From Pirellulales bacterium (GTDB lineage: Bacteria > Planctomycetota > Planctomycetia > Pirellulales > UBA1268): 49,414 nucleotides of DNA. Position 1 is the first letter of the stretch. Each line of letters opens with the position of its first letter. A model generated the notes under the pieces. The model saw only the letters and a program-made list of their open reading frames with translations. It did not search any database and was not told the DNA's origin. The translations under genes and the position numbers were made by a program. The stretch lies in NCBI GenBank assembly GCA_044339885.1, contig JBIIUP010000001.1, positions 1-49,414 on the forward strand. The letters run 5' to 3'. Of the stretch, positions 5,376 to 43,410 are shown in pieces.

Positions 5376-7995
5376 GCGACCTCCTGCGGAACCGCTGCCG
5401 GATGAGCTCCGCCGCCGTGTTGACCACGAAGGTGAGCGCGAAGAGCACGAGGGCCGCCAGGAACAGCACGCGGTAGTGGGCGCTGCCGCGGGCCGCCTCC
5501 GGCAGCTCCGTGGCGATGGCGGCCGAGAGCGTCTGGAATCCGTTGAAGAGGTTCCAGTCCATGATCGGCGTGTTGCCGGCGGCCATGAGCACGATCATGG
5601 TCTCGCCCACCGCGCGGCCGAGCCCGATCATCACCGCCGAGAAGAGCCCGCTGGCCGCCGCCGGGACGATGACGCGGACGGCGGTCTGCCAGGGGGTGGC
5701 CCCCGCCCCCAGCGACGCGCTCCGCAGGTGCTCGGGCACGCTCGTCAGGGCGTCGTCGGCGATCGTGAAGATGAGCGGGATGATCGCGAAGCTCATCCCC
5801 AGGCCGACGACGAGGGCGTTCCTCTGGACGTAGGTGCCGAACAGGCCGCCGCGGGTGTCGATCCGCAGGGCGTCGCAGAACATCGCGGCGGCCACCGCCA
5901 GGCCCGCCGTCGCCAGCACCCCGCAGGCGAACACGGCACACGACACGACCGCGGCCCGGCGGTCCGACCAGCCTTGGCTCGACCGCCGCAGCCACGGGCC
6001 GACGTACCGGCCGCACACCGCCGTCACCGCCACAGCGGCCAGCGGCACGGTCGCCAGCACCCAGCCGCCGAAGCCGCTGCCGCCGCGGCCGTCGAGCCAG
6101 CCCCGGAAATCGCCCTGGAAGAGGACTCGCTCCACGACGGGCGCCGCCAGCCGCGAGGCCGCCAGGCCGGCCGGGATCGCCACCACCGCCACGAACACGA
6201 ACCGCCACGCGGCGAGGCGGCTCCGCCAGCCGGCGGGCACGAACTGCCAGAGGTGGGCGCACGTCAGGAGCGACAGCGGCACGACGAACAACGCCGTCAC
6301 CGCCGGCACCACGGCCCGTTCGAGCAGCGGGGCGAACACGAGCCCGGCCACGAATCCCAGGACGACGCTCGGCAGGCCGGCCATCAGCTCGATCGTCGGC
6401 TTGATCCGGGCCCGCCACCGGGCGTGCATGAACTGGCTGGCGTAGACGGCCGCGAGGATCGCCACTGGCGTCGCGAACAGCATCGCGTAGAGCGTGGCCT
6501 TGAAGGTGCCGAAGATGAGCGGCAGCAGGCCGAACTTCGGCTCGAAGGCCTCGTGGCCCGTGGTCTCCCAGGCATGGACCGGCCCCGGGTAGCTCTCGTA
6601 CCAGACCGGTCGCAGGAGCGTCCGCGGCGACACCTCCGGATGGCCGACCGCGAGGGCGTAGGCCGTCATGCCGCGATCGCCGGCGACGAGCAGGTGGTCC
6701 TCGCGGGGCGCGATGCAGAGCCGCACCGCGGCCCCCGTCGCACCACCGGGAGCGGGCGGCAGCCGCAGCACCGTGGCGCCGGTCGTGGCGTGCAGCAGAC
6801 GGACGTCCCCCGCGGCGTCGGCCGTCGCGAACAGCCGCGAGCGGGGCGACGCCGCGATCGCGGTCACCGCCGGCTCGTCGCCCCCAGGCGCACCACCGGC
6901 GGCGAACGTCCGGGCCACCACCGTCGTCAGTCCGTCGGCCGCGGCGGTGTCGGCGACCCGCGCCGTGAACAGTTCCCGGATCGTGCCCCGCCCGTCGACG
7001 ACCACCAGCGCGGACCCGCCGAAGAGCCGCTCCACGAGCGCCACTCCGGCCTCGGCGGGGGCGGCCGTGAACGACTCCATCTCCACCGGGGCCTCGACGT
7101 CCCGGATGACGTAGCGGCGGCCACGGCCGTCCGCCGCGAACAGGAACAGCTGGTCGCCCAGCTCGGAGAGCCGCACGAACCGCGGGGTGAATCCAGGCGG
7201 CGGTTCGATCGTCGTGCCGATCGACTCGCTCACGACCTCGTCGGTCAGCAGGTTCCGCCGCGACGTCGTGGCGGCGACCCGCACGAGGCCCGCGCCGTCG
7301 AGCGCGGCCACGAGCGGGCCGCCCTCCAGCGACGTCAGATCGATGTCGATGACCGGCGCGTCGGTCTCGGGAGAAGCGGCGCCGAACTCGGCGACGAAGG
7401 TTACGCGCGCGTACCGCTCGTTCGCGCCGCGAACCAGGGCGGCGCCGTTCCAGGGAACAGCCCCCCCGGACTCCGGCCGCGGTGCGTCGGCCGCGAGGTC
7501 GGCGACGTCGACGAACGACGACTCCAGGCCCAGGCGACCGCTGCGAAACGATCCGTCGGCGAAGCCGACGGCGGCCTGCAGTGTTCCCGGCAGGACGCGG
7601 ATCGCCGTGGCGCCGGCGACGCCGGCCTCGACGGCCGACTCCGTGAACAACGGTGCGCCGTCCGCGACGCCGACCACGCTGACGCCCCCGGACCTGGCCT
7701 GTTCCCCGCCGTCCCCAGCCGGCTCGACGAACCAGGCGACCGCCCCGGACTCGTCAATGCCGAGGGCGGCGGGCGCCGTCGCGGCGGCCGCGAACGAACC
7801 GGCCGGCCGCGCCACCGCGGCGCGGAACAAGGGGAGCGCCACCGCGAGCAGGAAGACGCCGACGAGCAGCACCGCGACGATCGTGCCGATCCCGCCGATC
7901 GTGATCAGCAGCCGCGCGACCCGGTCGGCCCCGCGGACGCGGGCATGGGTGGAACGACGTCGCGGCCGACCGGTGAATGTGCCGCTGGAGTCCAT
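5365..7995 (-). CDS. pstC: phosphate ABC transporter permease PstC, long form
   Basis: 876 aa. TM1, about 400 aa extra-cytoplasmic region, then the PstC core (FGLLPLIFGTFKATLYAMLFATPVAILAAVYASQF ... ASLGAGATPWQTAVRVIVPAAASGLFSAVMIGLGRAVGETMIVLMAAGN). Confidence 0.9.
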   Translation of the reverse strand: MDSSGTFTGRPRRRSTHARVRGADRVARLLITIGGIGTIVAVLLVGVFLLAVALPLFRAAVARPAGSFAAAATAPAALGIDESGAVAWFVEPAGDGGEQARSGGVSVVGVADGAPLFTESAVEAGVAGATAIRVLPGTLQAAVGFADGSFRSGRLGLESSFVDVADLAADAPRPESGGAVPWNGAALVRGANERYARVTFVAEFGAASPETDAPVIDIDLTSLEGGPLVAALDGAGLVRVAATTSRRNLLTDEVVSESIGTTIEPPPGFTPRFVRLSELGDQLFLFAADGRGRRYVIRDVEAPVEMESFTAAPAEAGVALVERLFGGSALVVVDGRGTIRELFTARVADTAAADGLTTVVARTFAAGGAPGGDEPAVTAIAASPRSRLFATADAAGDVRLLHATTGATVLRLPPAPGGATGAAVRLCIAPREDHLLVAGDRGMTAYALAVGHPEVSPRTLLRPVWYESYPGPVHAWETTGHEAFEPKFGLLPLIFGTFKATLYAMLFATPVAILAAVYASQFMHARWRARIKPTIELMAGLPSVVLGFVAGLVFAPLLERAVVPAVTALFVVPLSLLTCAHLWQFVPAGWRSRLAAWRFVFVAVVAIPAGLAASRLAAPVVERVLFQGDFRGWLDGRGGSGFGGWVLATVPLAAVAVTAVCGRYVGPWLRRSSQGWSDRRAAVVSCAVFACGVLATAGLAVAAAMFCDALRIDTRGGLFGTYVQRNALVVGLGMSFAIIPLIFTIADDALTSVPEHLRSASLGAGATPWQTAVRVIVPAAASGLFSAVMIGLGRAVGETMIVLMAAGNTPIMDWNLFNGFQTLSAAIATELPEAARGSAHYRVLFLAALVLFALTFVVNTAAELIRQRFRRRSHEL

Positions 7996-8041
7996 GGGGC
8001 CGCCGCGGGGCAGGTGAAGAGGACGCGGAAAACCGCCGAAA

Positions 8042-9037
8042 TCAGGGCTGCCCGCCGTCCATGGTCGCCAGCGCCCGCTTGGCGACCGCCCCGGTCACGG
8101 GCAGGTAGCCGTCCTTGAGCACGTCCTGCTGCCCGGTGGCGCTCAGCACGTACCTGAGGAATTCCCGTCGCAGCGGCTCCAGCGGGGCACCCGGCTTCCG
8201 GTTGACGCTCATGAACAGGAACCTGGCGAGCGGGTATTCGCCCGAGTACGCGGCCTCGGCCGCGGGGGGCACCGCTTCGGCGCCGGTCTTGGGGGCGATG
8301 GGCAGGGCCCGCACGTCGGCCGTGCGGTAACCGATGCCACTGTAGCCGATCCCATAGCGGTCGCTGGCGACGGCCTGGACGACGGCCGAACTGCCCGGCT
8401 GCTCCTTCACCGTGGGCTTGAAGTCGCCCTTGAACAGGGCCCGCTCCTTGAAATAGCCGTACGTGCCGCTGGTGGCGTTGCGGCCGTAGAGGCTGATCGG
8501 CTTGTCCTTCCACTCGCCATCCAGGCCGAGGTCGCCCCAGGTGCGGATCTCGGCGGCGGCCCCGCCGGTGCGGTTCTTCGAGAAGATGGCGTCGATCTGC
8601 TGGAGCGAGAGTCCGGCGAGCGGATTGTCCTTGTGGACGAACACGGCGAGCATGTCGATCGCGACCGGCACCACGATCGGGGCGTAGCCGTACTTCTTCT
8701 TGAACTCGTCGATCTCGGAAGGCTTCCAGTCGCGGCTCATGGGGGCGAAGGTCGCCGTTCCCTCGATGAGCGCCGGCGGCCCCGAGGCCGATCCCTTCCC
8801 CTCGATCGCCTCGCGGACGCTCGGATAGGACTTCTTGAACCCTTCCGCCCAGAGCGAGACGAGGTTGTTCATCGTGTCGGAGCCGACGAACTTCAGCGAC
8901 CCGGCGACCTCGCCGGAGACCCGCGCGTAGGGCTCGAGGGCAGGGTCCAACCCCGCGCCGCGGGCGGCCGGAGGCGGGGCGGCGGAGGCCAGGGCGAGGG
9001 TGATCAGAAGGGCATCGACGAGGGTGCGTCTCACCAT
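8042..9037 (-). CDS. pstS: phosphate ABC transporter substrate-binding protein PstS
   Basis: ORF track gives 8042..9445. I trimmed it to ATG 9037, which yields a signal peptide (MVRRTLVDALLITLALASAAPPPAARG) followed by PstS/PBP-like sequence (LKFVGSDTMNNLVSLWAEGFKKSYP ... GIGYSGIGY). First gene of the pst operon. Confidence 0.9.
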   Translation of the reverse strand: MVRRTLVDALLITLALASAAPPPAARGAGLDPALEPYARVSGEVAGSLKFVGSDTMNNLVSLWAEGFKKSYPSVREAIEGKGSASGPPALIEGTATFAPMSRDWKPSEIDEFKKKYGYAPIVVPVAIDMLAVFVHKDNPLAGLSLQQIDAIFSKNRTGGAAAEIRTWGDLGLDGEWKDKPISLYGRNATSGTYGYFKERALFKGDFKPTVKEQPGSSAVVQAVASDRYGIGYSGIGYRTADVRALPIAPKTGAEAVPPAAEAAYSGEYPLARFLFMSVNRKPGAPLEPLRREFLRYVLSATGQQDVLKDGYLPVTGAVAKRALATMDGGQP

Positions 9038-21479: not shown

Positions 21480-22865
21480 TCAGGCGAGCGCGGTGGCCGC
21501 GCGGGCGATCGCCTCGTCGACGGCCGCGGCATCGGCGGCCTCGGCGATGATCCGCACGATCGGCTCGGTGTTGCTGCCGCGGACCAGCAGCCAGCCCCCG
21601 TCCCAGTCGAGCCGCAGGCCGTCGAGGCGATCCGCACGGGCCCCCGGAAACGCTGCCGCGACCCGCTCCAGCGCCGCGGTCAGGGCCGGGCCGCGGGTCT
21701 CCGCCGAGAGGGCGACCTTCGCCTTCCGCATCACCATCCGCGGCAGCCGCCCGGCAAGGTCGGCCACGCGCTGGAGCGTCCCCCCGGCGCACATCCTGTC
21801 GAGGACGAGGGCCATCGCCACGAAACTGTCCCGCACGAGCACGACGCGGGGATCGATCACGCCGCCGTTGCCCTCGCCGCCGATGACGGCGCTCGCCGCC
21901 AGCATCGCGTCGACGACGTTGGCCTCGCCGACCGCGGCGACGTGGCAGGGCACGCCGTGCCGCGCCGCGATCGCGGCGGTCATGCCGCTCGTCGCGCAGT
22001 TCACCACGACCGGTCCCCTGGTCCCGGCGAGCACGCCCTCGACGGCCAGGGCGAGCGTCGCCTCCTCGCCGATGTAGGCCCCGTCGGCCGTCGCGATCGC
22101 CAGCCGGTCGGCGTCGGGATCCTGGAAGAATCCGACGTCCGCCCCGCTCGCCGTGATCCGCGGCAGCATGCCGGCGAGGTTCTCGGCCGTGGGCTCGGGG
22201 TCGTGCTCGAACAGCCCGTCGGGCGTGCCCCCCTCGATGACGAAATCGCAGCCCAGGGTCTCGAACAGCAGGCGGGCGACGCGGCTACCCGCGCCATGGC
22301 CGCTGTCGAGCCAGACCCGCGGCCGGTGCCGCCGGATCGCATCGACGTCGACCGTGGCGGCGACGAGCCGCACATGCTCGGGCCCGACGTCGAAGCCGCG
22401 GACCGTCCCGCGGGGCGTGCCGGAAGGCGGCGCCGCGTGGGCCCCGGACTCGAAGCGGGCGAGCACCCCGCGGCCGGCGGCCGCCGTGAGCACCCGCCCT
22501 TCCGCCGCGAAGAGCTTCATGCCGTTGTAGCGGGCGGGATTGTGGCTCGCCGAGATCTGGATGCCGCCGGCCGCCCCGAGGGCACGGATCGCGATCCCGA
22601 TCGACGGCGTGGCGGCCGGACCGCAGTCGATCACGTCCCGGCCGGCCGCCGCGAGGTGGTCCGCGACCGCGGCGGCGAAGGCGGCGCCGCTCTCGCGGCC
22701 GTCGCGACCGATCACGACGGCGCCCGCGGGCAGCGTCTCCGCGAAGGCCGCCGCGTAGCGGACGGCCACCTCGGGGGTGAGCGTTCGCCCCACGATCCCG
22801 CGGAGCCCGGACACGCTGACGATCAGCGGCTCGGCGGAGGGCGCGGTGGAGGCGGTGTCGCTCAT
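21480..22865 (-). CDS. alpha-D-phosphohexomutase family protein (phosphomannomutase / phosphoglucosamine mutase-like)
   Basis: Active-site ISASHNPARYNGMKLF, Mg-binding FQDPDADRL, sugar loop GGEGNGG, phosphate loop RGSNTEPIVRI. ORF trimmed to ATG 22865 (MSDTASTAPSAEPLIVSVSGLRG). Confidence 0.9.
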   Translation of the reverse strand: MSDTASTAPSAEPLIVSVSGLRGIVGRTLTPEVAVRYAAAFAETLPAGAVVIGRDGRESGAAFAAAVADHLAAAGRDVIDCGPAATPSIGIAIRALGAAGGIQISASHNPARYNGMKLFAAEGRVLTAAAGRGVLARFESGAHAAPPSGTPRGTVRGFDVGPEHVRLVAATVDVDAIRRHRPRVWLDSGHGAGSRVARLLFETLGCDFVIEGGTPDGLFEHDPEPTAENLAGMLPRITASGADVGFFQDPDADRLAIATADGAYIGEEATLALAVEGVLAGTRGPVVVNCATSGMTAAIAARHGVPCHVAAVGEANVVDAMLAASAVIGGEGNGGVIDPRVVLVRDSFVAMALVLDRMCAGGTLQRVADLAGRLPRMVMRKAKVALSAETRGPALTAALERVAAAFPGARADRLDGLRLDWDGGWLLVRGSNTEPIVRIIAEAADAAAVDEAIARAATALA

Positions 22866-22926
22866 GGCAGCCGCGAGTATAAAAGTCCGGCCCGGGTTCG
22901 ACAGGCCCGGCAGAGGAGGATTTACC

Positions 22927-24798
22927 ATGCCCGCGGCTCCCACCGATCCCGTCCAGGCCCGTCGCCTCGAGGCGATCGCCGCTGCCCGATCCTCGGCCGC
23001 CATCACGGCGCACTCCGCCGAGGCGATGGGCAACTGGCTCACGCAGCCGCGGTACGCCGAGTTCGCCGCCGAGCTCGGCGACCGCATCGACCGCGGGCTC
23101 TGGAAGGAGCTCGACGACGCCTTCTGGACCGTGATTCCCTTCGGCACCGGAGGCCGCCGCGGCGTCATGTATCCCGTGGGCTGCAACGCCATCAACGACC
23201 GCACGATCGGCGAGAGCGCCCAGGGCCTCGCCGACTACGTGCGGGGCGTGCTGCCGGCCGGGACGACCCCCTCCTGCGCGATCGCCTACGACACCCGGCA
23301 CCGCTCCGAGCACTTCGCCCGGCTGTGCACCGAGGTGCTCCTGGCCGCCGGCTTCCGGGTGAACTTCCTGCGCGGCCACCGCAGCACGCCCGAGCTCTCG
23401 TTCGCCGTCCGGCACACCCGCAGCAGCTGCGGCATCATGGTGACGGCGAGCCACAACCCGCCCACCGACAACGCCGTGAAGGTCTACTGGGCCGGGGGCA
23501 TCCAGGTCTCGCCGCCGCACGACAAGGGGATCATCGACCACGTCATGCGGATGGAGACGGTGCGGCGCGAGCCCTTCGACGCCGGCGTGGCAGCCGGCCG
23601 CGTGCGGTTCGTCGAGGAGGAGGTCGACCGGGCCTTCGTGGCCGCCGTGCTCGAGCAGTCGACGCCGGGCCCGCGGGACATCTCGATCCTCTACACGCCG
23701 CTGCACGGCGTGGGGGCGACCGCGATCGTGCCCGTGCTCGATGGGGCGGGCTTCCGGCGGCTGCGGCTCTACGGGCCGCACGAAAAGCCCGACGGCGATT
23801 TTCCCAACGTCCCGGGGCACGTGGCGAACCCGGAGAATCCGGCCGTCCTCACCGGCCCGATCGAGGAGGCCCGTGGCCGCGGCGACGACCTCGTGATCGC
23901 CAGCGACCCGGACTGCGACCGGCTCGGCGCCGCCGCGCCGCTCACGGCCGACCCGCGCGGAGAGTGGCGGACGTTCACCGGCAACCAGCTCTGCGGCCTG
24001 CTCTGCGGGCAGGCGATCGCCGGCCGCCGGGCCCGGGGCCTGGCGCGGCCGGGCGACTACGTCGTCACCACGCTGGTGACCACCGGGCTCGTCCGCCGCC
24101 TGGCCGAGGCCCACGGCCTGGAGGTCGACGACGCGGAGCTCGTCGGCTTCAAGTGGATCTGCGCGGCCGTGGACCGGCTCGGCCCCGAGCGGTTCGTGTT
24201 CGGCGCCGAGGAGTCGCACGGCTTCGTGGCGGGCACGCACGTGCGGGACAAGGACGCCAGCGTGGCCGCCCTGCTCCTGGCCGAGCTGGCCGCCGCGCTC
24301 AAGGCCCGCGGCCGCACGCTCCACGAGGAGCTCGACGATCTCTACCTCCGGCATGGCTGCCACCAGGAGCGGCAGATCAACGTCATGCTTCCGGGGGCAT
24401 CCGGCATGGATCGCATGCGGGAGATCATGGCCGCGATCCGCTCCCGTCCGCCGGCCTCGTTCGCGGGCCTGCCGGTGGTCCGCACCCGCGACCAGGCCAC
24501 CCTCACCACCTGGACCCCGGGAGCGGCCCCGACGTCGTACCCGGGCGTGAAGAGCGACCTGGTGCTCTTCGACCTCGGCGGGCTGGACGGCGCCGGGACG
24601 CTGCTGCCTGACGGCCGCTTCCCGGCGCTGAGCAACGCCGTGGCGGCCCGCCCCTCGGGCACCGAGCCGAAGATCAAGTTCTACCTGTTCGCGGTCTCGC
24701 CCCCCGGCCCGGCAGCCGACCTCGCGGAGACCAAGCGGGCGCTGCAGGCGCGGCTGGACGCGATGGAGCGGGAACTGCGTGCCCTGGTGGGCGCGTGA
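22927..24798 (+). CDS. pgm: phosphoglucomutase-type alpha-D-phosphohexomutase (long form)
   Basis: FGTGGRRG, MVTASHNPPTDNAVKVY, ASDPDCDRLG, FGAEESHGF, RPSGTEPKIKFY. ORF trimmed to ATG 22927, preceded by GGAGGA. Confidence 0.9.
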   Translation: MPAAPTDPVQARRLEAIAAARSSAAITAHSAEAMGNWLTQPRYAEFAAELGDRIDRGLWKELDDAFWTVIPFGTGGRRGVMYPVGCNAINDRTIGESAQGLADYVRGVLPAGTTPSCAIAYDTRHRSEHFARLCTEVLLAAGFRVNFLRGHRSTPELSFAVRHTRSSCGIMVTASHNPPTDNAVKVYWAGGIQVSPPHDKGIIDHVMRMETVRREPFDAGVAAGRVRFVEEEVDRAFVAAVLEQSTPGPRDISILYTPLHGVGATAIVPVLDGAGFRRLRLYGPHEKPDGDFPNVPGHVANPENPAVLTGPIEEARGRGDDLVIASDPDCDRLGAAAPLTADPRGEWRTFTGNQLCGLLCGQAIAGRRARGLARPGDYVVTTLVTTGLVRRLAEAHGLEVDDAELVGFKWICAAVDRLGPERFVFGAEESHGFVAGTHVRDKDASVAALLLAELAAALKARGRTLHEELDDLYLRHGCHQERQINVMLPGASGMDRMREIMAAIRSRPPASFAGLPVVRTRDQATLTTWTPGAAPTSYPGVKSDLVLFDLGGLDGAGTLLPDGRFPALSNAVAARPSGTEPKIKFYLFAVSPPGPAADLAETKRALQARLDAMERELRALVGA

Positions 24799-35232: not shown

Positions 35233-35885
35233 GGCGCCGCCTCGGGCCGCACGAGTGGCGCGACCGCGGTGGGATCCTCGGCGGCCAGGAGCTGGACCTC
35301 GCCGTCGACCCGCCGCACGCGGGCCTCGTAACCGCGTTCGAGGCCGGCCGGCGGCGGCCCGCCCCGCGCGGCGAGCGGCCGGCGCAGGATCCGCAGCGTC
35401 AGGTCATCCGTGCCGATCGCGGTGAAGCCGCCGGAGCCGACGGCGGCGGCGAGCATGCCGGAGGCGGCGCCGGTGTCGGCATCGGCCGCGATCGCCCGCG
35501 CCAGCCGCCGCCAGCGGGCCGCCCGCTCGCCCCGCAGGCCGTCCGGCCATCGGCGGGCGATCGCGTTCGGGCCGCCACCGGCGAGCTCGAGCAGATGGTC
35601 CGCGTCGTCGGGCATGCCCCACGTGAGCCGGTGATCGAAGCCGAGGTCGAGCCAGGCCGGCGCCAGCCAGGGGGAGAACAGTCGGCCCTTGATCGTGCGG
35701 AGGACCGCCGAGCTGCCGCTGCCGGTGTTGACGACGATCGTGAGCAAGAGCCCGACGAGGTACAGCGTCAGCAACACCGTCACCGCTGCGACGACGGCCT
35801 CCGACGGTCGGTTCGACTCAGGGGGTGGTGCGGGCATGGCGGCGGATGACGCGCGACGCGGACGGGAGGGCCGACGGATTGCCAC
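35229..35885 (-). CDS. hypothetical single-pass membrane protein, translationally coupled to the HTTM-like gene
   Basis: 218 aa with one TM helix (AVVAAVTVLLTLYLVGLLLTIVV). Its stop overlaps the downstream start (ATGA at 35229-35232). No family recognised. Confidence 0.5.
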   Translation of the reverse strand: MAIRRPSRPRRASSAAMPAPPPESNRPSEAVVAAVTVLLTLYLVGLLLTIVVNTGSGSSAVLRTIKGRLFSPWLAPAWLDLGFDHRLTWGMPDDADHLLELAGGGPNAIARRWPDGLRGERAARWRRLARAIAADADTGAASGMLAAAVGSGGFTAIGTDDLTLRILRRPLAARGGPPPAGLERGYEARVRRVDGEVQLLAAEDPTAVAPLVRPEAAP

Positions 35886-36009
35886 GTCGGCACGGAAGGC
35901 GAGTTACGAGTGTGCTTCGTCGTCCCGGGAATCGCCAGTGCCGGATTCCACGCTCCTGCCGTGAGACGCCGTCGGCACGCGTCCCGACGCCTCCGCACCC
36001 GCCGTCACG

Positions 36010-36038
36010 TTGACACGCCGCTGCGGGGGCGATAGTTT
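36010..36038 (+). promoter_or_regulatory. candidate sigma-70-type promoter for tRNA-Ala
   Basis: TTGACA (36010-36015), 17-nt spacer, TAGTTT (36033-36038), about 80 nt upstream of the tRNA. Pattern match only. Confidence 0.35.
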
Positions 36039-36120
36039 TCGGAGGTGTCGCGGGCTTTTTCCGCACCGCGACAGGCCCCGTCGGATCCCCGATCCCAGAC
36101 GGGTGGCGCAGGTTTCACTC

Positions 36121-36193
36121 GGGGGATTAGCTCAATTGGGAGAGCGTCTGGCTGGCAGCCAGAAGGTCAGGGGTTCGAATCCCCTATCCTCCA
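36121..36193 (+). tRNA. tRNA-Ala (anticodon GGC)
   Basis: Folded by hand. Acceptor GGGGGAT/ATCCTCC with the G3:U70 Ala identity pair, D stem GCTC/GAGC, anticodon stem TCTGG/CCAGA with loop CT-GGC-AG, 5-nt variable loop, T stem AGGGG/CCCCT with loop TTCGAAT, discriminator A73. CCA is not encoded. Confidence 0.95.
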
Positions 36194-36311
36194 TTCAAGT
36201 TCCCGACGCCCGCGGGGCCAGCGTGGCCCCTGCGGGCCGATCGGTGAGAGGTCGCCCGCCGGGCGACGCCCGGAGCCATATCGCGGGCCTCGACCGCGAA
36301 CGACAGCGGCC

Positions 36312-37277
36312 ATGGTGATCGACCCCGGCGTTGAGGTGGCGTGGGTCGACGGACGGTTCCTCCCGCGGGCCGATCTCGCCCTGCCCGTGGGCGACGCCGG
36401 ATTCGTGATGGGGGCCACCGTCACCGAGCAGCTGCGGACCTTTCACGGCCGCCCGTTCCTGCTGCCGGAGCATCTCGAGCGGCTGGCGGAGTCGCTCGCC
36501 GTCGTGGGCATCGAGCCGCCCCTCCCGCTCGCCGACTTCGGCTCGGCGGCGGAGGAGGTCGCGGCCCGCAACCACGCGGTGCTCGCCGGTGCCGCATCCG
36601 GCGGCGCGGGCCCCCCGCCGGACCTCGGCCTCGTCGTCTTCGTCACGCCGGGCGACCTGGCGGCACAGCACGGCGGCCGCGGCGGCAGGCCGCGGGCGAT
36701 GATCCACACGTTTCCGCTCGCCTTCACGATCTGGGCCGACGCCTACGAACACGGCGTTTCGCTGCGCAGCGTGACGGTGCGGCAGGTGCCCGAGGCGTGC
36801 TGGCCGATCCGCGCCAAGGTGCGGAGCCGGCTGCACTACTGGCTCGCCGACCGCGAGGCCCACGCGGCCGAACCCGGTGCCCGCGGCGTGCTCGCCCACG
36901 CCGACGGCCGGATCAGCGAGACCTCGACGGCCAACGTCGCGATCGTGTCGTCCGGTGTCATCCACGCCCCTCCCGCCTGCGACGCGCTCGTCGGCGTGAG
37001 CCTCGGTCACGCCCGGCGGCTCGCCGCGGCCCGGGGCCTCGGCTGGCGGGAGCGGTCGCTCACCGCCACCGATCTCGCCACCGCCGACGAGATCCTCCTC
37101 ACGAGCACGCCCAGCTGCATCCTGCCGGCCACGCGATTCGACGGCCAGCCCGTCGGCGCCGGCACGCCGGGACCGGTCTTCCGTGGTCTGCTCGACGCCT
37201 GGAACCTCGACGTCGATCTCGACATCGCCGCCCAGGCCCGGGCCTGGCGCGGCCGACCCGCCCGGTCCGCGTCCTGA
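36312..37277 (+). CDS. aminotransferase class IV (branched-chain/D-amino-acid aminotransferase or ADC lyase-like)
   Basis: VAWVDGRFLPRADLALPVGDAGFVMGATVTEQLRTFHGRPFLLPEHLERL ... ISETSTANVAIV ... GVSLGHARRLA ... ADEILLTSTPSCILPATRFDG are fold-type IV hallmarks. ORF 36045..37277 trimmed to ATG 36312 because its 5' part overlaps the tRNA. Confidence 0.85.
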   Translation: MVIDPGVEVAWVDGRFLPRADLALPVGDAGFVMGATVTEQLRTFHGRPFLLPEHLERLAESLAVVGIEPPLPLADFGSAAEEVAARNHAVLAGAASGGAGPPPDLGLVVFVTPGDLAAQHGGRGGRPRAMIHTFPLAFTIWADAYEHGVSLRSVTVRQVPEACWPIRAKVRSRLHYWLADREAHAAEPGARGVLAHADGRISETSTANVAIVSSGVIHAPPACDALVGVSLGHARRLAAARGLGWRERSLTATDLATADEILLTSTPSCILPATRFDGQPVGAGTPGPVFRGLLDAWNLDVDLDIAAQARAWRGRPARSAS

Positions 37278-37536
37278 AGCACCGACGTCGAGCCCCCGGG
37301 CGGCGCGGCCCGCGGCGGCCGGCATTGCCCGCGGCGGCCAAACCGTCATACTGTCCGTGTTCGGGGGGGGTGTTCATCGACCTGACATCTTCGAGCCTGC
37401 GCACCCGTTGGCCTCCCCGCCCGTAGCGTTCCTGGAAATTTAACCCTTTTCGGAGCCTCTTTGATCGACGGCGGGCCGAAGCCCGTCGCGCTCGCGCCGC
37501 CGTCTTCCCGACGGGGGCAACACTCGGAGGTGGATC

Positions 37537-38292
37537 ATGCACTTTCTCCTGGCCAACGCGGCGAACACCGCCGCCCTGTCGATGGACTTCACCAAGAATG
37601 CCGACATCCTGCAGTCGATCACGCTCTACCTGTTCTTCGCCGGCACCGTCGCCATGGGGGCCGGTGCCCTCTACTTCTTCCTGCTGCGCGACGACGTCGA
37701 CCCTGCCTACCGCAGCGCGATGGTGGTGGCGGGGCTCGTCTGCGCGATCGCCTGCTTCCACTACTACAAGATGACGGCCGTCTACCAGGCGGGCGGACAG
37801 TTCCCCACCGCGCTGCGGTACATCGACTGGCTGTTCACGACGCCGCTGCTGCTCGTGAAGTTCCCCCTGCTGCTGCGGATGGGCGAACGCGGGGCGAAGT
37901 TCTTCTGGCAGCTCGTCATCCTGGACGTCGCGATGATCGTCACGGCCTTCATCGCCGAGACCTCGGTGGTCGACTCGCAGCGGTGGTGGGGCTTCTTCCT
38001 GGTCTCGTGCCTCTTCGAGGCGTTGATCGTCGGGACGCTCTACCTGCAGCTCGGCCAGTCGATCTCGGAAGCACCCGCCCCGCTGGCCAGGGCCCTGGAG
38101 ACGATGCGTCTGTTCGTCCTCGTCGGCTGGGCGATCTACCCGATCGGCTTCCTCATGGCCCGGTCGGGATACGGCGAGCTCCGCGAGATCGTCTACAACG
38201 TCGCCGACGTGATCAACAAGGTGGGTTTCGGCCTCGTCGCCTACCACGGCATCAAGGCCCTGGGCTCCGATTACGGCCGACGCGGCCACTGA
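37537..38292 (+). CDS. microbial (type 1) rhodopsin, proteorhodopsin/xanthorhodopsin-like, D97-T101-K108 motif
   Basis: 251 aa with seven hydrophobic helices. Helix B FHYY (His75). Helix C RYIDWLFTTPLLLVKF. Helix F VGWAIYPIGF. Helix G ADVINKVGFGL, with the Schiff-base Lys at 228 (codon 38218-38220) and Asp224. GGAGG lies 6 nt upstream of the ATG. Confidence 0.93.
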   Translation: MHFLLANAANTAALSMDFTKNADILQSITLYLFFAGTVAMGAGALYFFLLRDDVDPAYRSAMVVAGLVCAIACFHYYKMTAVYQAGGQFPTALRYIDWLFTTPLLLVKFPLLLRMGERGAKFFWQLVILDVAMIVTAFIAETSVVDSQRWWGFFLVSCLFEALIVGTLYLQLGQSISEAPAPLARALETMRLFVLVGWAIYPIGFLMARSGYGELREIVYNVADVINKVGFGLVAYHGIKALGSDYGRRGH

Positions 38293-38313
38293 GCAGCGCA
38301 TGAGCGGCGCATC

Positions 38314-38348
38314 GGCCGGCCCGCCCGCCTGACCGCGGCGGGCCGGCC
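38314..38348 (+). promoter_or_regulatory. intercistronic GC stem-loop between rhodopsin and blh (possible attenuator or mRNA-stability element)
   Basis: GGCCGGCCCGCC (38314-38325) and GGCGGGCCGGCC (38337-38348) form a perfect 12-bp stem with an 11-nt loop. There is no downstream T-run. The GGAGG for blh follows at 38357. Confidence 0.5.
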
Positions 38349-38369
38349 TGCCCGCCGGAGGTGGCCCGC

Positions 38370-39461
38370 ATGACGTCCTCGTGCATCCCCGCGGCGGGAG
38401 CGTTCCAGGACGCGGCCTTCCGCCGGCTGCCGCTGGCCGTGATGCTCGCCTCCGCGGCGGCGTGCCTGGCCTGGGGGCCGGGCTGGTCGGTGCGGGCGGC
38501 CCCCTGGCCGTGGCTGGCCTCGCTCGCCGTGGTCGGGCTGCCACACGGTGCCGCCGACCTCGCGGTCACGCGGCGGCTGCTGGGGCGGACTGGAGTCCTA
38601 TGGCTCTTCGTCGGTTATACGGCCATCATGCTCCTCGTCGGCGCGGCCTTCGCGACCTGGCCGGCGACCGTGCTCGCCTCGTTCCTCGCGCTGAGCGGCT
38701 GGCATTTTGGCGCCGCGCATGCCGACGGCCAGTCGCCTCCGCTGCGGCGACGCCCCGGCGGGCTGTTCCTGGCGGCCGTCGCGCGAGGCGCCTCCGTGAT
38801 CGGCATGCCGCTGGCGGCGTGGCCGGAGGCGGCGGCCGAAGTCGCCCGGTCGCTGGCGGCCCTCGCCGGGACGGATTGGGTGGCCGATCCGGCCGCGATC
38901 CGCTCGGCCGGCACCGCCTGCGTGGCGGTCGGCGCCGCCTCCCTCGCCGCCGAGGCCTGGTCGACGCGGCAGGATCCCGGCGGGCCGGGCCGCTCGCTGG
39001 CGACGCTCGGCGAACTCGCCGTCTTCGGCGGGCTGGCGGTCGTCGCCGACCCGCTGTTCTCCGTGGGGACGTACTTTCTCTGTTGGCACGCCTGGCGGCA
39101 GATGCGGCTGCTGGCCCCGGTGATCGGCGCGACGCCGATCCAAGACGCCCGGTCGCTCGCCCGGGCCCTCGGCGAGATCCACCTCGCGGCGCTGCCGCTG
39201 CTCGTCCCCACATGGGCGGCCCTCGCCGCCCTCTGGTGGCTCGTGCCGGCCGCCCACTCGACGCGCGGACTGGCCATCCTCTCGCTGGCGGTCTACATCG
39301 TCGTCACGCCGTCGCACGACCTGCTGAGAGACTGGTGGCGGTCCCGGACGACCTCCGACGAGGCCGCCGGCCGCCGCCCACGGCGGCAATCCGCCGGATC
39401 GCACGGCGGCGGCACGCTCCGCCCCCGAGCCGGAGCTACCCAGAAGTCCAGTGCGCCCTAG
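38370..39461 (+). CDS. blh: Brp/Blh family beta-carotene 15,15'-dioxygenase (retinal synthase)
   Basis: Polytopic membrane protein with the spaced His motifs of this family (GLPHGAADL, SGWHFGAAH, CWHAWRQM, TPSHDLL), sited immediately after a rhodopsin gene. Start set at ATG 38370 (GGAGG 8 nt upstream); the ORF track starts at GTG 38361. It has an R/S/G-rich C-terminal tail of about 40 aa. Confidence 0.8.
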   Translation: MTSSCIPAAGAFQDAAFRRLPLAVMLASAAACLAWGPGWSVRAAPWPWLASLAVVGLPHGAADLAVTRRLLGRTGVLWLFVGYTAIMLLVGAAFATWPATVLASFLALSGWHFGAAHADGQSPPLRRRPGGLFLAAVARGASVIGMPLAAWPEAAAEVARSLAALAGTDWVADPAAIRSAGTACVAVGAASLAAEAWSTRQDPGGPGRSLATLGELAVFGGLAVVADPLFSVGTYFLCWHAWRQMRLLAPVIGATPIQDARSLARALGEIHLAALPLLVPTWAALAALWWLVPAAHSTRGLAILSLAVYIVVTPSHDLLRDWWRSRTTSDEAAGRRPRRQSAGSHGGGTLRPRAGATQKSSAP

Positions 39462-39611
39462 CTGGAACAAGTCTGCCGGAGCAGGGATGCGACGACGGCC
39501 CCTCGGTGTTTTCACCGGTCGGCGCAGTGGATAAAGGCCATGGATGGCTTTTTCCACGGGCAGCTAGACTGCCGGCTTTCGCCGGAGGCCCGCACGCCGC
39601 GCGGGCACGCC

Positions 39612-40259
39612 ATGAACGCCCTGAAGGCCCTACTCGACGTCTTCCTGCACCTCGACGAGCATCTGCACGGGATCATCGAGGCCTGGGGGCCTTGGACCTA
39701 CGTCCTGCTCTTCGCCATCATCCTCTGCGAAACGGGCCTGGTGGTGACCCCGTTCCTGCCGGGGGACTCGCTCCTGTTCGCCGCCGGGGCCATGGCGGCG
39801 CTCTACCCCGACGACCTCAACGTCGTCCTCCTCCTGGGGCTGCTCAGCGTGGCCGCGATCCTCGGCGACACGCTCAACTACGCCATCGGCCGCTGGCTCG
39901 GCCCGCGGGCCTTCAAGATCGACCGCTGGTTCCTCAAGCACGAGCACCTCGAGCGGACGCGGGCCTTCTACGAGCGGCACGGCGGCAAGACGATCGTGCT
40001 GGCGAGATTCGTGCCGATCGTCCGCACCTTCGCCCCGTTCGTGGCCGGCGTGGGGAGGATGAACTACCCGCAGTTCCTCTTCTACAACGTGGCGGGCGGG
40101 ATCGCCTGGGTGCTCATCTGCACGCTCGCGGGCTACTTCTTCGGAAACATCCCGGTCGTGAAGGAGAACTTCGAGCTCGTGGTGGTCGGCATCGTGCTGG
40201 TGTCGGTGCTGCCGATCGCCTGGGAAGTCCTCTCCGCCCGGCGCCGCGGCCGCCGGTGA
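39612..40259 (+). CDS. dedA: DedA family membrane protein
   Basis: WTYVLLFAIILCETGLVVTPFLPGDSLLFAAGAMAA ... LGDTLNYAIGRWLG ... HGGKTIVLARFVPIVRTFAPFVAGVGRMNY are classic DedA/SNARE-associated motifs. ORF trimmed to ATG 39612. Confidence 0.9.
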   Translation: MNALKALLDVFLHLDEHLHGIIEAWGPWTYVLLFAIILCETGLVVTPFLPGDSLLFAAGAMAALYPDDLNVVLLLGLLSVAAILGDTLNYAIGRWLGPRAFKIDRWFLKHEHLERTRAFYERHGGKTIVLARFVPIVRTFAPFVAGVGRMNYPQFLFYNVAGGIAWVLICTLAGYFFGNIPVVKENFELVVVGIVLVSVLPIAWEVLSARRRGRR

Positions 40260-40287
40260 ACCGGCCGCGGCCTCCCGCCGGCGTCCG

Positions 40288-43200
40288 CTACCGGAGCCGC
40301 GCCGCCGTCTCGTCGAACACCCGGTCGAATTCGGCGCGGGTCCGCGCCGTGATCGACTGCACTTCCGCCCCGAGGGCATCGGGCGGGTCGTAGCCGAGCA
40401 GCTGCGCCAGCTTCCGCCGCTCGTCCGGCGCCGCGGGGAAGTCGTGGCGGGCCGGCGCGTCGAGGAGCCGCAGGCGGCCCTCGATCGCCCGCAGCGTGCG
40501 GTAGGCCCGCTCGAGGAACGCGAACCGCTCGTCGTCGAGGTGGCCGGCGGCGTGGAGAGCGTGGAGGGCGGCCGACGTCCGCGTCGTCCGCAGCCGCTCG
40601 TCGGCCCCGCCGTGCACGAGCTGGAGCACCTGGGCGATGAACTCGATGTCGACCACGCCGCCGGGACCGCGCTTGAGGTTCGTCGCCTGCGCCCCCTCCT
40701 CCATGCGCCGCCGCATCCGCCGGATCTCCTCCACATGTTCGGCCCGCCAGCCGTGGCCGTAGCTCGCCGCCACGATGATCCGCTCGGCCTCAGCCCGCGC
40801 GGCAGGCGCCGCCACGACGACCCGGGCCTTGAGGAGCGCCTGCCGCTCCCAGACGGCCGCGGGGCCTTCCGGGGCGAAGTAGCGGCCGAACTCGTCGAGC
40901 GAGATCGCCGGCGAGCCGCTGCGGCCCATGGGCCGCAGCCGGGAGTCGAGCTCGTAGAGCCGCCCCTGCGGCCCCAGCCCGTTGCACGCCTTGGCCGCGC
41001 GGAGCGCCAGCTCGCCGAAGAAGTGGGCGTTCGTCGTGCTCCCGGTGTCCCGCGCCCGGCGGCGGTGCGCGCAGACTCCGTCGTGGTCGTAGAGGAAGAC
41101 GACGTCCACGTCGCTGGCGTAGTTCATCTCGCGACCGCCGAACTTCCCCATGGCGAGGACCACGGGCTCCGCCGGCGCGGCCGCCTCCCCGCCGCCGACC
41201 GTCGGCTCGCCGAAGCGGTCGACGAGCGCCGCCCGCTCGGCGGCCACGACCGCCCGCAGGATCGTCTCGGCGATCGCGGTGAGCGCGGCGGTCGTCGTCT
41301 CCGCGTCCTGCTTGCCGAGGATGTCCCGCACGCCGACCCGCAGCTGCTGCGAGGCCTTGAACGCGTGGAGGATCGGCGCGCGGTCGGTGGCCCCGCGGGA
41401 GAGCTCGTCGAGGCCCGCGGCCAGGTCCTGTGGGGTGGGCAGCCGGTCGACGAGCAGGCTGTCGAGCAGCTCGTCGATCATGCCGGGGTTGCCGACGAGG
41501 AGCCGGGCCAGGAACGGGCTCGACGAGCAGAGCCGCACCGTGAGGTCGAGCGACGGGGGATGGAAGCTCAGCAGCTCCCAGAGCACCCCCTTGCCGCCGA
41601 GCGACCCGGCCACGGCGCCGAGGTTCACGAGCGTCGCGTCGGGGTCGGGCGTGCGGCCGATGGCGGCCAGGAGGCGGGGGGCGATCGCGGCGAGGAAGTG
41701 GCGGCAGCGGCGGGAGGAGAGGAAGCGGACCCTCTCCTCGCCGAGGTCGACCAGCGCGCGATGCGCCGCCGTCACGTCGCGGAATCCGTGGCGGGCCAGC
41801 ACCTCCCGCACCCGCTCCGCCGGCGGGTCGGGATCGAGCACGAGGTCGACCTCGGGCTCGGGCCGCTCGTCGTCGGGAAAGGCGTCGTGGAGCAGGTGGT
41901 CGAGGATCCTGCGATTGAGGTCCGTCGCCTCGGCGAGCCTGCGCCGCAGCCGGTCGCGGCCGTCGGGGCCCGTGCCGAAGCCCAGTCGCACGGCCAGCCG
42001 GCCGAGCTCCTCGTCGCCGGCGGGGAGCCGGTGCGTCCGCCGGTCGTAGAGGATCTGGAGGCGGTGTTCGACGGTCCTCAGCAGCGTGGAAGTCCGCTCG
42101 AGGATCTCCCGCTCCTGGTCGGTGAGGCTCCCGGTCTCGGCGAGCCGGCGGATCGCCTCCAGCGTGTTGCCCGTGCGGACCCGGGGCGTGTCCCCGCCGC
42201 CGAGGAGCTGGAGGAACTGGATCGTGAACTCCACGTCGCGGATGCCTCCCCGGCCGTGCTTCACGTCGGACCCGTCGGTGCCCGCGCGGATCGCCTGCTG
42301 CTCGATCCGCCGCTTGAGCGCCTTGATGCCGGCGATGTCGGCCCGCGTCAGCCAGCGCCGGTAGACCCAGGGCTCGAGCTCGGCGAGCAGCCGCCCGCCC
42401 AGCCGCTCGTCGCCGGCGACGCAGCGGGCCTTGATCCACGCCTGCCGCTCCCAGGTTCGGCCCTCGCGGTCGAAGTACTGCAGCATCGCGTCGAGGCCCA
42501 GCGACACGGCGCCGGCGTTGCCGTGCGGGCGCAGCCGCAGGTCGACGCGGTAGGCGGCCGCCAGGTCGGTCGTCTCGGCCAGCAGCCGCACCGTCTCCTG
42601 CACGACCCGCTCGAAGAACTCCTGGTTCGTGCCCGGCTTCGGCCCCTCGACCCGGCCGTCCGCCGAGTGGACGAACACCAGGTCGATGTCGCTGGAATAG
42701 TTGAGCTCGCCCCCCCCGAGCTTCCCCAGCGCGATCGCGGCGATCGTCGCCGGGCCACCCCCCGGCTCCCGCGGGATCCCGCGCCGCTGCCCGACGCCGG
42801 CGAGGGCCGCGGCGAGCGCCGCCTGCACGATGCAGTCGGCAACGTGCGACAGCTGCGCGGCGACGGTCTCCAGCGGCAGCCCGGCCACCACGTCGCCGTA
42901 GGCGATCCGCAGCGTCTGCCGCCGCTTGAACCGCCGCAGGGCCCGCATCACGCCCTCCGGTTCGTGGAGCGGCCCGACCTCCGCGGCGAGCGCGGCGGCC
43001 AGGCTCTCGCGCTTCTCGGGACGGCCCTGCCCCACGCGGACCTGCTCCCACGACTCCGGATCGGCGATGACGATCTCGGCGAGGTACGGGCTGGCGGAGA
43101 AGATCCGCAGGAGCGTCTCCAGGGACCGCGGATCCCGCTCGCAGAGCGTGCCGACGGCCAGCGGGCTGCGGACGGCCCCGACGAAGCGTTCGAGGGCCAC

Positions 43201-43410
43201 CAGCACGCGGTCGGGGTCGCTCGTCTCGGGCAGCAGGGCGGCAAGGCGGCCGCACAGCCCGGACAGCAGGTCGAACGTCAGGCCGTGCTCCGCCAGCCCG
43301 CGGATCGCCCGGCCGGCGGCGGCGGGGTCGGCGAGGCCCGCCGAGCGGCCCCACTCGGCGGCGGCCGCCGCGTCGTCGAGGAGCCGCACGGCGTCGACCG
43401 CCGTCGTCAT
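40288..43410 (-). CDS. glnE: bifunctional glutamine synthetase adenylyltransferase / adenylyl-removing enzyme
   Basis: Two nucleotidyltransferase modules (ALGKLGGGELNYSSDIDLVFVH and AMGKFGGREMNYASDVDVVFLY), each followed by GlnE-type helical domains (RVDLRLRPHG / ELDSRLRPMG). ORF trimmed to ATG 43410. Confidence 0.95.
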   Translation of the reverse strand: MTTAVDAVRLLDDAAAAAEWGRSAGLADPAAAGRAIRGLAEHGLTFDLLSGLCGRLAALLPETSDPDRVLVALERFVGAVRSPLAVGTLCERDPRSLETLLRIFSASPYLAEIVIADPESWEQVRVGQGRPEKRESLAAALAAEVGPLHEPEGVMRALRRFKRRQTLRIAYGDVVAGLPLETVAAQLSHVADCIVQAALAAALAGVGQRRGIPREPGGGPATIAAIALGKLGGGELNYSSDIDLVFVHSADGRVEGPKPGTNQEFFERVVQETVRLLAETTDLAAAYRVDLRLRPHGNAGAVSLGLDAMLQYFDREGRTWERQAWIKARCVAGDERLGGRLLAELEPWVYRRWLTRADIAGIKALKRRIEQQAIRAGTDGSDVKHGRGGIRDVEFTIQFLQLLGGGDTPRVRTGNTLEAIRRLAETGSLTDQEREILERTSTLLRTVEHRLQILYDRRTHRLPAGDEELGRLAVRLGFGTGPDGRDRLRRRLAEATDLNRRILDHLLHDAFPDDERPEPEVDLVLDPDPPAERVREVLARHGFRDVTAAHRALVDLGEERVRFLSSRRCRHFLAAIAPRLLAAIGRTPDPDATLVNLGAVAGSLGGKGVLWELLSFHPPSLDLTVRLCSSSPFLARLLVGNPGMIDELLDSLLVDRLPTPQDLAAGLDELSRGATDRAPILHAFKASQQLRVGVRDILGKQDAETTTAALTAIAETILRAVVAAERAALVDRFGEPTVGGGEAAAPAEPVVLAMGKFGGREMNYASDVDVVFLYDHDGVCAHRRRARDTGSTTNAHFFGELALRAAKACNGLGPQGRLYELDSRLRPMGRSGSPAISLDEFGRYFAPEGPAAVWERQALLKARVVVAAPAARAEAERIIVAASYGHGWRAEHVEEIRRMRRRMEEGAQATNLKRGPGGVVDIEFIAQVLQLVHGGADERLRTTRTSAALHALHAAGHLDDERFAFLERAYRTLRAIEGRLRLLDAPARHDFPAAPDERRKLAQLLGYDPPDALGAEVQSITARTRAEFDRVFDETAARLR

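Follow-up and report, generated by a model that had tools for sequence, protein, structure and literature searches.

An ESR-type rhodopsin gene and its adjoining blh gene as a predicted two-gene phototrophy unit in a high-GC freshwater Pirellulales-type planctomycete

Experiments have established that the rhodopsin of Exiguobacterium sibiricum (ESR) pumps protons and takes them up with the help of Lys96 (PMC11155677; PMC8927995), and roles have been described for its residues His57, Glu130 and Glu214 (PMC11155677). Planctomycete opsins carrying the DTK motif and belonging to the ESR branch are on record from clearwater lakes, Mendota among them (bioRxiv 10.1101/2022.08.01.502354), green-light rhodopsins were found in freshwater Planctomycetes by Andrei et al. 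2019 (PMC6461901), and the operon layout of a rhodopsin gene with blh has been described as typical (PMC13043013). The pairing of an ESR-type rhodopsin with blh in lake Planctomycetes is already known and ordinary, and in view of the last three reports a first-pass annotation of the present DNA, which had called phototrophy-related genes in this lineage deserving of attention, overstated their novelty.

The DNA analysed here, referred to as the window, is a stretch of 49,414 nucleotides (49 kb) and belongs to a high-GC, Pirellulales-type planctomycete that lives in fresh water. The identical opsin protein is present on 12 JGI metagenome contigs and occurs in JGI sample 3300043567, where contig Ga0453105_0002590 represents the same population; a related MAG carries that sample number in its name, 'ME2014-10-11_3300043567'. 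These contigs apparently come from Lake Mendota, since the 'ME' of the MAG name can be read as the abbreviation used in the preprint (bioRxiv 10.1101/2022.08.01.502354). The features of the locus are as follows.

36121 to 36193, forward strand: tRNA-Ala(GGC) (ARAGORN; Rfam, 70 bits)
36312 to 37277, forward strand: class IV aminotransferase, upstream neighbour (PF01063, 117.6 bits; synteny)
37526 to 37532, forward strand: Shine-Dalgarno sequence GGAGGTG, 4 nt 5' of the opsin ATG (read directly from the sequence)
37537 to 38292, forward strand: predicted type-1 rhodopsin, ESR-type, 251 amino acids (PF01036, PDB search, residue mapping, AF2, Foldseek)
38314 to 38348, forward strand: GC-rich inverted repeat in the opsin-blh spacer, stem of ~12 bp, no T-tract (fold)
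38357 to 38363, forward strand: Shine-Dalgarno sequence GGAGGTG, 5' of the blh ATG (read directly from the sequence)
38370 to 39461, forward strand: predicted Brp/Blh-family beta-carotene 15,15'-dioxygenase, 363 amino acids (PF15461, TIGR03753, His conservation)
39540 to 40259, forward strand: DedA/VTT-domain membrane protein, downstream neighbour (NF008102, 272.8 bits; synteny)
40288 to 43410, reverse strand: GlnE glutamine synthetase adenylyltransferase, convergent neighbour (PF03710, 378 bits; synteny)
Opsin key residues, mapped against BR, GPR and ESR: H75, R94, D97, T101, L105, K108, E141, E217, D224, N227, K228
Opsin helices predicted by AF2: 24-49, 56-84, 91-113, 116-142, 148-178, 181-209, 213-250

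The aminotransferase is a conserved neighbour with no evident functional link to the opsin and blh genes.

The opsin matches PF01036 with 152.7 bits (E value 1.4e-44; cut-off 24.6) over profile positions 5-221 of 224 and contains the segments RYIDWLFTTPLLL, GWAIYPIGF and DVINK. The AF2 model (pLDDT 89.1) has seven long helices and superposes onto solved rhodopsins with TM-scores of 0.8-0.9 in Foldseek. Lys228 occupies the Schiff-base position, aligning with BR Lys216, GPR Lys231 and ESR Lys225, and is kept in 119 of 120 homologs, the lone exception being a partial sequence. The product of 37537-38292 is assigned, by its sequence, as a functional-looking type-1 rhodopsin. The profile match and the alignment bear out the first-pass annotation in naming a seven-helix type-1 rhodopsin of 251 amino acids with Lys228 as the Schiff-base lysine; that annotation missed the lysine at the donor position, the DTK motif it creates and the subgroup to which it points.

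In the alignment, Asp97, Thr101 and Lys108 fall at BR positions 85, 89 and 96 and form the DTK motif, with a lysine at the donor position in 114/120 homologs, and Leu105 lies at the colour-tuning position, where residue mapping indicates green. His75, Glu141 and Glu217 are kept in 118, 120 and 119 of the 120 homologs, respectively. The ESR residues His57, Arg82, Asp85, Thr89, Lys96, Glu130, Glu214, Asp221 and Lys225 all have their counterparts in the window opsin, and each ESR functional residue position is kept in at least 114/120 homologs. A phmmer search of PDB sequences ranks ESR (PDB code 4hyj) best, with an E value of 3.3e-50 and 174 bits, followed by a match at 121 bits; PR, MAR and XR all score 121 bits or less. 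Foldseek with the AF2 model likewise returns 4hyj as the top match (TM-scores 0.83/0.88, rmsd 1.9 Å). The opsin is placed in the ESR subgroup because Lys108 at the donor position gives the DTK motif, and residues, phmmer rank and Foldseek rank all identify it as a predicted ESR-type (DTK) protein and not a generic proteorhodopsin.

The second gene starts at ATG 38370, which gives a product of 363 amino acids and a gap of 77 nt to the opsin gene, in agreement with the JGI gene call and with the spacing first proposed. The start of the program-listed open reading frame, GTG 38361, falls within the Shine-Dalgarno sequence GGAGGTG at 38357-38363. The protein scores 129.4 bits against TIGR03753 (cut-off 95.25) and 125 bits against PF15461 (cut-off 28), the latter over profile positions 2-266 of 267, and contains GLPHGAADL, SGWHFGAAH, CWHAWRQM and TPSHDLL. 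With these histidine motifs and the score above the TIGR03753 cut-off, the first-pass view that this frame fits Brp/Blh is upheld, and its product is, from sequence, a Brp/Blh family member and predicted beta-carotene dioxygenase. His59, His112, His240 and His316 are invariant in 68/68 orthologs and His271 is kept in 66/68; the conserved histidines of Brp/Blh proteins are the presumed iron ligands. The C-terminal ~45 amino acids are of low complexity and rich in R, G, S and P. A PDB sequence search found no solved relative of Blh.

Among related loci with room for blh, the gene adjoins the opsin gene on the same strand in 64/67. The shared strand, the 77-nt spacer and a Shine-Dalgarno sequence for each gene suggest that opsin and blh are probably co-transcribed, a reading drawn from the layout because neither a promoter nor a terminator could be assigned. 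A scan of 36000-40400 found no sigma-70-like promoter, and the terminator scan over the same range did not pick up the spacer repeat, all of its terminator-like matches lying inside coding sequence. An alignment of 35 upstream regions from relatives shows conservation confined to GGAGG and the ATG of the opsin gene, with no further conserved motif found. The Rfam scan of 35800-40400 returned nothing beyond the tRNA. The region 38290-38372 folds with -50 kcal/mol, yet with a z-score against shuffled sequences of just -1.54, not better than shuffled sequence at such GC, and a regulatory role for a hairpin at 38314-38348 was dropped; the inverted repeat is possibly an mRNA hairpin.

Taken together, the two genes very probably make up a phototrophy unit of their high-GC freshwater host, with a green-absorbing outward proton pump of the ESR subgroup and a Blh that makes its retinal. 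The analysis itself shows to which families the proteins belong, which residues are conserved, the predicted fold, the synteny and the fit in composition; what Lys108 does, the direction of pumping, the colour and the reaction of Blh are read by analogy with the biochemistry of ESR and Blh. As identity to ESR is only 40-46% and a search of the literature found no experimentally characterised member of the planctomycete opsin branch, which way the protein pumps and what Lys108 contributes are extrapolated. By this analogy all-trans retinal would be bound to Lys228 as a protonated Schiff base, and photoisomerisation would be followed by proton transfer to Asp97, whose pKa would be set by His75. 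The Schiff base would be reprotonated from the cytoplasm via Lys108 in place of the usual Asp or Glu donor, and the proton would exit toward the periplasm through a network including Glu217. Blh would act as a membrane non-haem-iron oxygenase cutting beta-carotene at the 15,15' bond to yield two retinals that serve as chromophore, with the carotenoid precursor supplied by genes outside the 49-kb window.

A photosensory role for the opsin, as a sensory rhodopsin and not an energy-conserving pump, is very unlikely. Sensory rhodopsins also lack an Asp or Glu donor, so that the non-carboxylic residue of the window opsin superficially recalls them, and many homologs are named 'sensory rhodopsin' in JGI source names; however, near-identical proteins switch there between 'bacteriorhodopsin' and 'sensory rhodopsin', and the labels therefore look automatic. 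The full ESR pump set of His75, Asp97, Lys108, Glu141 and Glu217 is retained, pumping is proven for ESR itself, which of all solved relatives is nearest in sequence and in fold, and neither in the window nor among the syntenic loci does a transducer or signalling gene adjoin the pair. The neighbours in the window are an aminotransferase, Blh, DedA and GlnE, with no cognate transducer beside the opsin, which speaks against the sensory reading. The pair as a mobile cassette recently landed beside a tRNA gene in a housekeeping region is more improbable still and can be set aside almost entirely. The tRNA-Ala does lie 1.3 kb upstream, the spread of the ESR branch over Firmicutes, Planctomycetes, Verrucomicrobia and Actinobacteria implies ancient transfers, and the opsin gene has 65% GC compared with about 73% for the window. 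However, the order tRNA-Ala, aminotransferase, opsin, blh, GlnE is kept in about 45 related loci from MAGs of 47-73% GC, the tRNA gene standing upstream of the pair in low-GC loci as well, which makes it a conserved synteny anchor and no island boundary. GlnE, at 53-75% identity across the clade, closes the conserved block, and DedA follows blh in the closer relatives. GC3 is 0.94 for opsin and 0.91 for blh, within the 0.90-0.97 of the neighbours, and the codon-adaptation index of both genes, scored on verified reading frames with leave-one-out, is inside the range of the neighbour genes. That the opsin gene has less GC overall is due to its GC2 of only 0.41, a value shared by the membrane-protein gene dedA. 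Pfam scans of the window's open reading frames found no integrase or other mobility gene. A recently transferred island was rejected on the host-like codon usage, the lack of mobility genes in these scans and the occupation of the same site in about 45 loci. Synteny down to 47% GC and codon usage like that of the neighbours identify the pair, as judged from sequence, as a long-standing resident passed on vertically in the clade, not as an import. The earlier observation that codons end in G or C as in host genes, and the conclusion drawn from it against recent import from a low-GC donor, are thereby confirmed; the description as a 'self-contained cassette' overstates the autonomy of a pair embedded in deeply conserved synteny of a planctomycete clade.

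The source of the chromophore bears on a further alternative, in which both genes are intact but the holoprotein needs an external carotenoid or retinal, or a non-canonical pathway, in a lineage that may make only C30 carotenoids. A Pfam scan of every window open reading frame with a coding signature gave no match for phytoene synthase, phytoene desaturase or lycopene cyclase, in line with the first-pass statement that crt genes are absent from the window. Planctopirus limnophila builds its C30 carotenoids from squalene, beta-carotene having gone undetected, and this is the only planctomycete carotenoid route found characterised in the literature consulted (PMC9907078); functional rhodopsins are on record in a bacterium without known retinal genes (PMC7734400). 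Against this, the position of Blh beside the opsin in nearly all loci and its four invariant histidines argue that the enzyme has a substrate, and a 49-kb window is uninformative on all other parts of the genome. In some relatives blh is directly followed by a crtI-family gene (TIGR02734, 525 bits), which ties the opsin-blh module to carotenoid metabolism; among the NCBIfam equivalogs the product of this gene matches the C40 enzymes CrtI/CrtD best, though every match is under its cut-off. Neither crtB nor a lycopene cyclase gene was found beside the pair in relatives, the genes near it being only crtI-family genes, an HpnE-like amino-oxidase, ispH and a CarH-like regulator. Dependence on an external or non-canonical source is decidedly unlikely. 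A broader departure is an outside prospect: the clade might obtain its chromophore unconventionally, from carotenoids scavenged from algae, by a C40 or cyclase pathway so far unrecognised, or through a Blh acting on another substrate, and its DTK pumps might also work unlike ESR. The strict linkage of opsin and blh in a phylum known for C30 carotenoids makes the origin of the beta-carotene a checkable question.

Compared with ESR (PDB code 4HYJ), the window opsin shares the DTK motif, the lysine at the BR-Asp96 position, the histidine partner of the acceptor aspartate, the glutamates at ESR positions 130 and 214 and the DxxNK of helix G, and the helix C segment is almost the same in both, RYIDWL(F/V)TTPLLLVKFPLL. 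Overall identity is nevertheless just 40-46%, the loops of the window opsin are shorter, the aligned B-C loop for instance by 6 residues, and the hosts differ, ESR coming from a permafrost Firmicute and the window opsin from a Gram-negative-type planctomycete of lake water. GPR is of the same 7-TM pump type, with an Asp97/His75 pair of equal numbering, Leu105 tuning, the NK of helix G and a linked blh gene, but has Glu108 as donor where the window opsin has Lys108. In marine PR-blh/crtEIBY-blh operons crt genes are linked, whereas none are linked in the window, and the opsin is less similar to PRs (about 121 bits) than to ESR (174). Xanthorhodopsin and Kin4B8 share the overall fold (TM-score about 0.81) but carry DTE in place of DTK. 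The position of BR Trp138 is a glycine in xanthorhodopsin, which opens a carotenoid-binding fenestration; its equivalent here is Trp151, a tryptophan in 120/120 homologs, although a nearby gap in the helix E alignment to BR makes this mapping less certain than those of helices C and G. With Trp and not Gly at the fenestration position, an antenna carotenoid is not expected, and the xanthorhodopsin-type reading was rejected. The window confirms a stable, vertically inherited unit of ESR-type rhodopsin and retinal synthase in abundant lake Planctomycetes, which should therefore be counted among the freshwater photoheterotrophs; natural variants of DTK, with DTT, DTQ and DTD among them, could also be drawn from the clade by the hundreds to study how lysine replaces a carboxylic donor. 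The published opsins of lake planctomycetes have phylum, habitat, DTK motif and predicted green tuning in common with the window opsin and differ from it in nothing substantive, and to these the window adds gene-level context for one high-GC lineage in the form of synteny, blh linkage and a residue inventory.

The ORF at 37537-38292 (+), proposed in the first-pass annotation as a 251-aa type-1 rhodopsin, matches Pfam Bac_rhodopsin over nearly the entire model (152.7 bits, E 1.4e-44), and the peptide motifs quoted there are all found in this ORF and its downstream neighbor. A MAFFT alignment with bacteriorhodopsin (BR) and green proteorhodopsin (GPR) places the proposed Schiff-base Lys228 on BR Lys216 and GPR Lys231, Asp97 and Thr101 on BR Asp85 and Thr89, His75 on GPR His75 and Leu105 at the spectral-tuning position. 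Lys108 occupies the position of BR Asp96 and GPR Glu108, which makes the motif D-T-K; the earlier reading was correct in outline but overlooked this lysine. The full residue set of Exiguobacterium sibiricum rhodopsin (ESR) is present (H75, R94, D97, T101, K108, E141, E217, D224 and K228), each residue being kept in 114-120 of the 120 best database homologs of the opsin, and the identity between the opsin and ESR is 40-46%. Natural DTT, DTQ and DTD variants occur inside this otherwise DTK clade, with the donor lysine replaced by Thr in the homologs P0068, P0090 and P0095, by Gln in P0070 and by Asp in P0109; P0068 and P0095 have Asn instead of His75.

The downstream ORF belongs, as had been suggested, to the Brp/Blh beta-carotene 15,15'-dioxygenase family, scoring 125 bits with Pfam BCD and 129.4 bits with NCBIfam TIGR03753 (curated cut-off 95.25). 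The mechanical ORF list puts its start at GTG 38361, which lies within a GGAGGTG Shine-Dalgarno sequence; the ATG at 38370 gives a 363-aa product, is identical to the JGI gene call and agrees with the 77-nt gap after the opsin stop noted earlier. GGAGGTG also stands 4 nt upstream of the opsin ATG. Among 68 orthologs from related loci, 33 Blh positions are at least 90% conserved, and His59, His112, His240 and His316, which correspond to the previously listed PHG, WHFG, CWH and PSH motifs, are invariant (68/68). No solved structure related to Blh by sequence was found. An Arg/Gly/Ser/Pro-rich tail of ~45 residues extends past the conserved domain (residues ~320-363; window 39326-39461), with another ~45 residues ahead of the domain start; both additions could be no more than a consequence of the very high GC content.

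The two genes are closely linked in related genomes, blh being next to the opsin on the same strand in 64 of the 67 loci that extend 1100 bp or more past the opsin. It was not detected in the other three (L006, L027 and L080), and the presence of GlnE nearby in L006 and L027 suggests that blh was lost there or has moved. Across 64 related loci the identities of opsin and Blh to the window correlate (r = 0.80), with medians of 77% and 42%, respectively; of the two, the opsin is by far the slower to evolve. Two metagenome-assembled genomes (MAGs) are each assigned two separate opsin-blh pairs (L033 and L051 in CAIXGY01, L037 and L071 in CAZMOU01), reflecting either true paralogy or mixed bins. 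Genes of the crtI family accompany the pair in some relatives, namely in the more divergent members of the clade and in a Blastopirellula MAG (L073).

L087:10001-14620, opsin, blh and crtI-family desaturase, in the same order in L062-L068, L072, L088 and L089
L073:5468-7021, crtI-family gene upstream of opsin-blh
L073:7750-8928, ispH/LytB upstream of opsin-blh
L073:8969-9949, minus strand, divergent, MerR and B12-binding regulator of the CarH/LitR type, just upstream of opsin-blh

The desaturase beside blh scores 525 bits with TIGR02734 (cut-off 238), with CrtI/CrtD as the best sub-threshold equivalogs. In L087-L089 it is followed directly by a second amino-oxidase, weakly HpnE-like (66 bits, well below the cut-off), of which weaker homologs occur elsewhere in L085 and L072. 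Neither gene stands beside opsin-blh in the window's own subclade, and the loci examined showed neither a phytoene synthase nor a lycopene cyclase adjoining the pair. L073:5468-11936 looks like a light-regulated isoprenoid/retinal module.

The view that the pair is not a recent import from a low-GC donor is borne out by both gene order and codon usage. In tblastn comparisons of the window's neighbors with the related loci, aminotransferase, opsin, blh, (DedA) and GlnE follow one another in dozens of MAGs, down to marine relatives of only 47-48% GC, and in about 45 loci this conserved block also takes in the tRNA-Ala(GGC) upstream of the aminotransferase. The G/C-ending codons resemble those of the host as described, with GC3 values of 0.94 (opsin) and 0.91 (blh; neighbors 0.90-0.97) and leave-one-out codon-adaptation indices of 0.78 and 0.69 (neighbors 0.66-0.81). 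Total GC is lower in the opsin because of the second codon positions (0.41), a feature it shares with the membrane protein DedA. Synteny and codon usage thus identify opsin-blh as an old, vertically inherited resident of the clade, and the occurrence of the ESR branch in several phyla (bioRxiv 10.1101/2022.08.01.502354) indicates transfers of far greater age.

The 80 loci from species-representative genomes are almost all from Planctomycetota MAGs, many titled "Pirellulales bacterium ... ME20xx", with three from Verrucomicrobiota; named opsin homologs come from Planctomycetia, Planctomycetaceae and Pirellulales MAGs and the cultured Stratiformator vulcanicus. Twelve JGI metagenome contigs encode the exact 251-aa opsin, with identical neighbors, and a MAG dated "ME2014-10-11" carries the number of one of these samples, 3300043567, in its name; "ME" is read as Lake Mendota following the abbreviation in the lake-opsin preprint (bioRxiv 10.1101/2022.08.01.502354). 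Ten records (L001, L006, L007, L023, L034, L037, L041, L061, L067 and L071) are titled "Candidatus Kuenenia" or "Chitinophagaceae/Chitinophaga"; their opsins are 66-85% identical to the planctomycete opsin, several share the tRNA-Ala/aminotransferase/opsin/blh/GlnE synteny, and their organism labels look wrong.

GC content is 69-77% across the window, and the identified genes (pstSCAB-phoU, rpe, a Mur-ligase-like gene, an S41 peptidase, a sugar-nucleotide transferase, MscS, an ECF sigma factor, two PGM/PMM paralogs, uvrC, a glycogen phosphorylase-like gene, ligA, glnE, a MiaB-like enzyme, def and an M20 peptidase) include no carotenoid gene, so the earlier statement that crt genes are absent holds for the window. 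The pst permease ORFs at 3693-5594 (-) and 5365-8094 (-) are very long, 633 and 909 aa stop to stop, with BPD_transp_1 confined to the C-terminal end, indicating either long N-terminal extensions or true starts far downstream; the overlapping PGM/PMM ORFs, 21480-23234 (-) and 22759-24798 (+), call for the same caution. Regulatory evidence around opsin-blh is unconvincing: no sigma-70-like promoter was found, tRNA alone matched among Rfam families, and upstream conservation of the opsin comprises nothing beyond the ribosome-binding site. The spacer that separates the opsin stop from the ribosome-binding site of blh contains a GC-rich inverted repeat of 12 bp that lacks a T-tract (38314-38348); its folding does not exceed that of shuffled sequence (z = -1.54), and at this GC content it cannot be told from chance.

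The analysis shows family membership, the full ESR residue set, the fold, the conserved linkage to blh and the compositional fit to the genome; by analogy with ESR biochemistry, the opsin would be a green-absorbing outward proton pump in which the Schiff base on Lys228 gives its proton to Asp97, tuned by His75, and is reprotonated via Lys108. Blh, judged from the biochemistry of its family, would cleave beta-carotene centrally to supply all-trans retinal. A C40 route in the clade is suggested by the crtI/D-like genes that adjoin blh in relatives; the only characterized planctomycete carotenoid pathway found is a C30 route from squalene, with no beta-carotene detected (PMC9907078).

The closest solved structure to the opsin by sequence is ESR (PDB code 4HYJ; E 3.3e-50, 174 bits), followed by proteorhodopsins at ~121 bits, and the segment RYIDWL-TTPLLLVKFPLL is common to the opsin and ESR. 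The AlphaFold model, built from 35 homologs, has seven long helices (pLDDT 89.1, pTM 0.85), and Foldseek places first the same entry, "Crystal structure of Exiguobacterium sibiricum rhodopsin" (TM 0.83/0.88, rmsd 1.9 Å). A xanthorhodopsin-like carotenoid antenna is not expected, since the position of BR Trp138, which we take to be the site opening the antenna fenestration in xanthorhodopsin, is Trp in 120/120 homologs. Experiments have established that ESR pumps protons in the light; it uses Lys96 for proton uptake and has a His57-Asp85 pair, a salt bridge between Arg82 and Glu130 and, on the release side, Glu214 (PMC11155677), and its pattern has been named the DTK motif (PMC8927995). The assignment can be refined to a predicted DTK pump of the ESR type, in a lake planctomycete of the Pirellulales type.

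The opsin-blh finding is real and its kind already known. Five green-light rhodopsins of freshwater Planctomycetes were reported in 2019 (PMC6461901), and a lake-opsin survey placed freshwater Planctomycetes within the ESR branch, with DTK sequences from clearwater lakes (bioRxiv 10.1101/2022.08.01.502354). A 2026 study again describes an ESR-containing branch as divergent at position 96, finds rhodopsin genes in MAGs of Planctomycetota and other phyla and calls the rhodopsin-blh operon typical (PMC13043013). Given these reports, the window is one more instance of a described kind, and the remaining interest lies in the source of the carotenoid and in the biochemistry of the planctomycete DTK branch.
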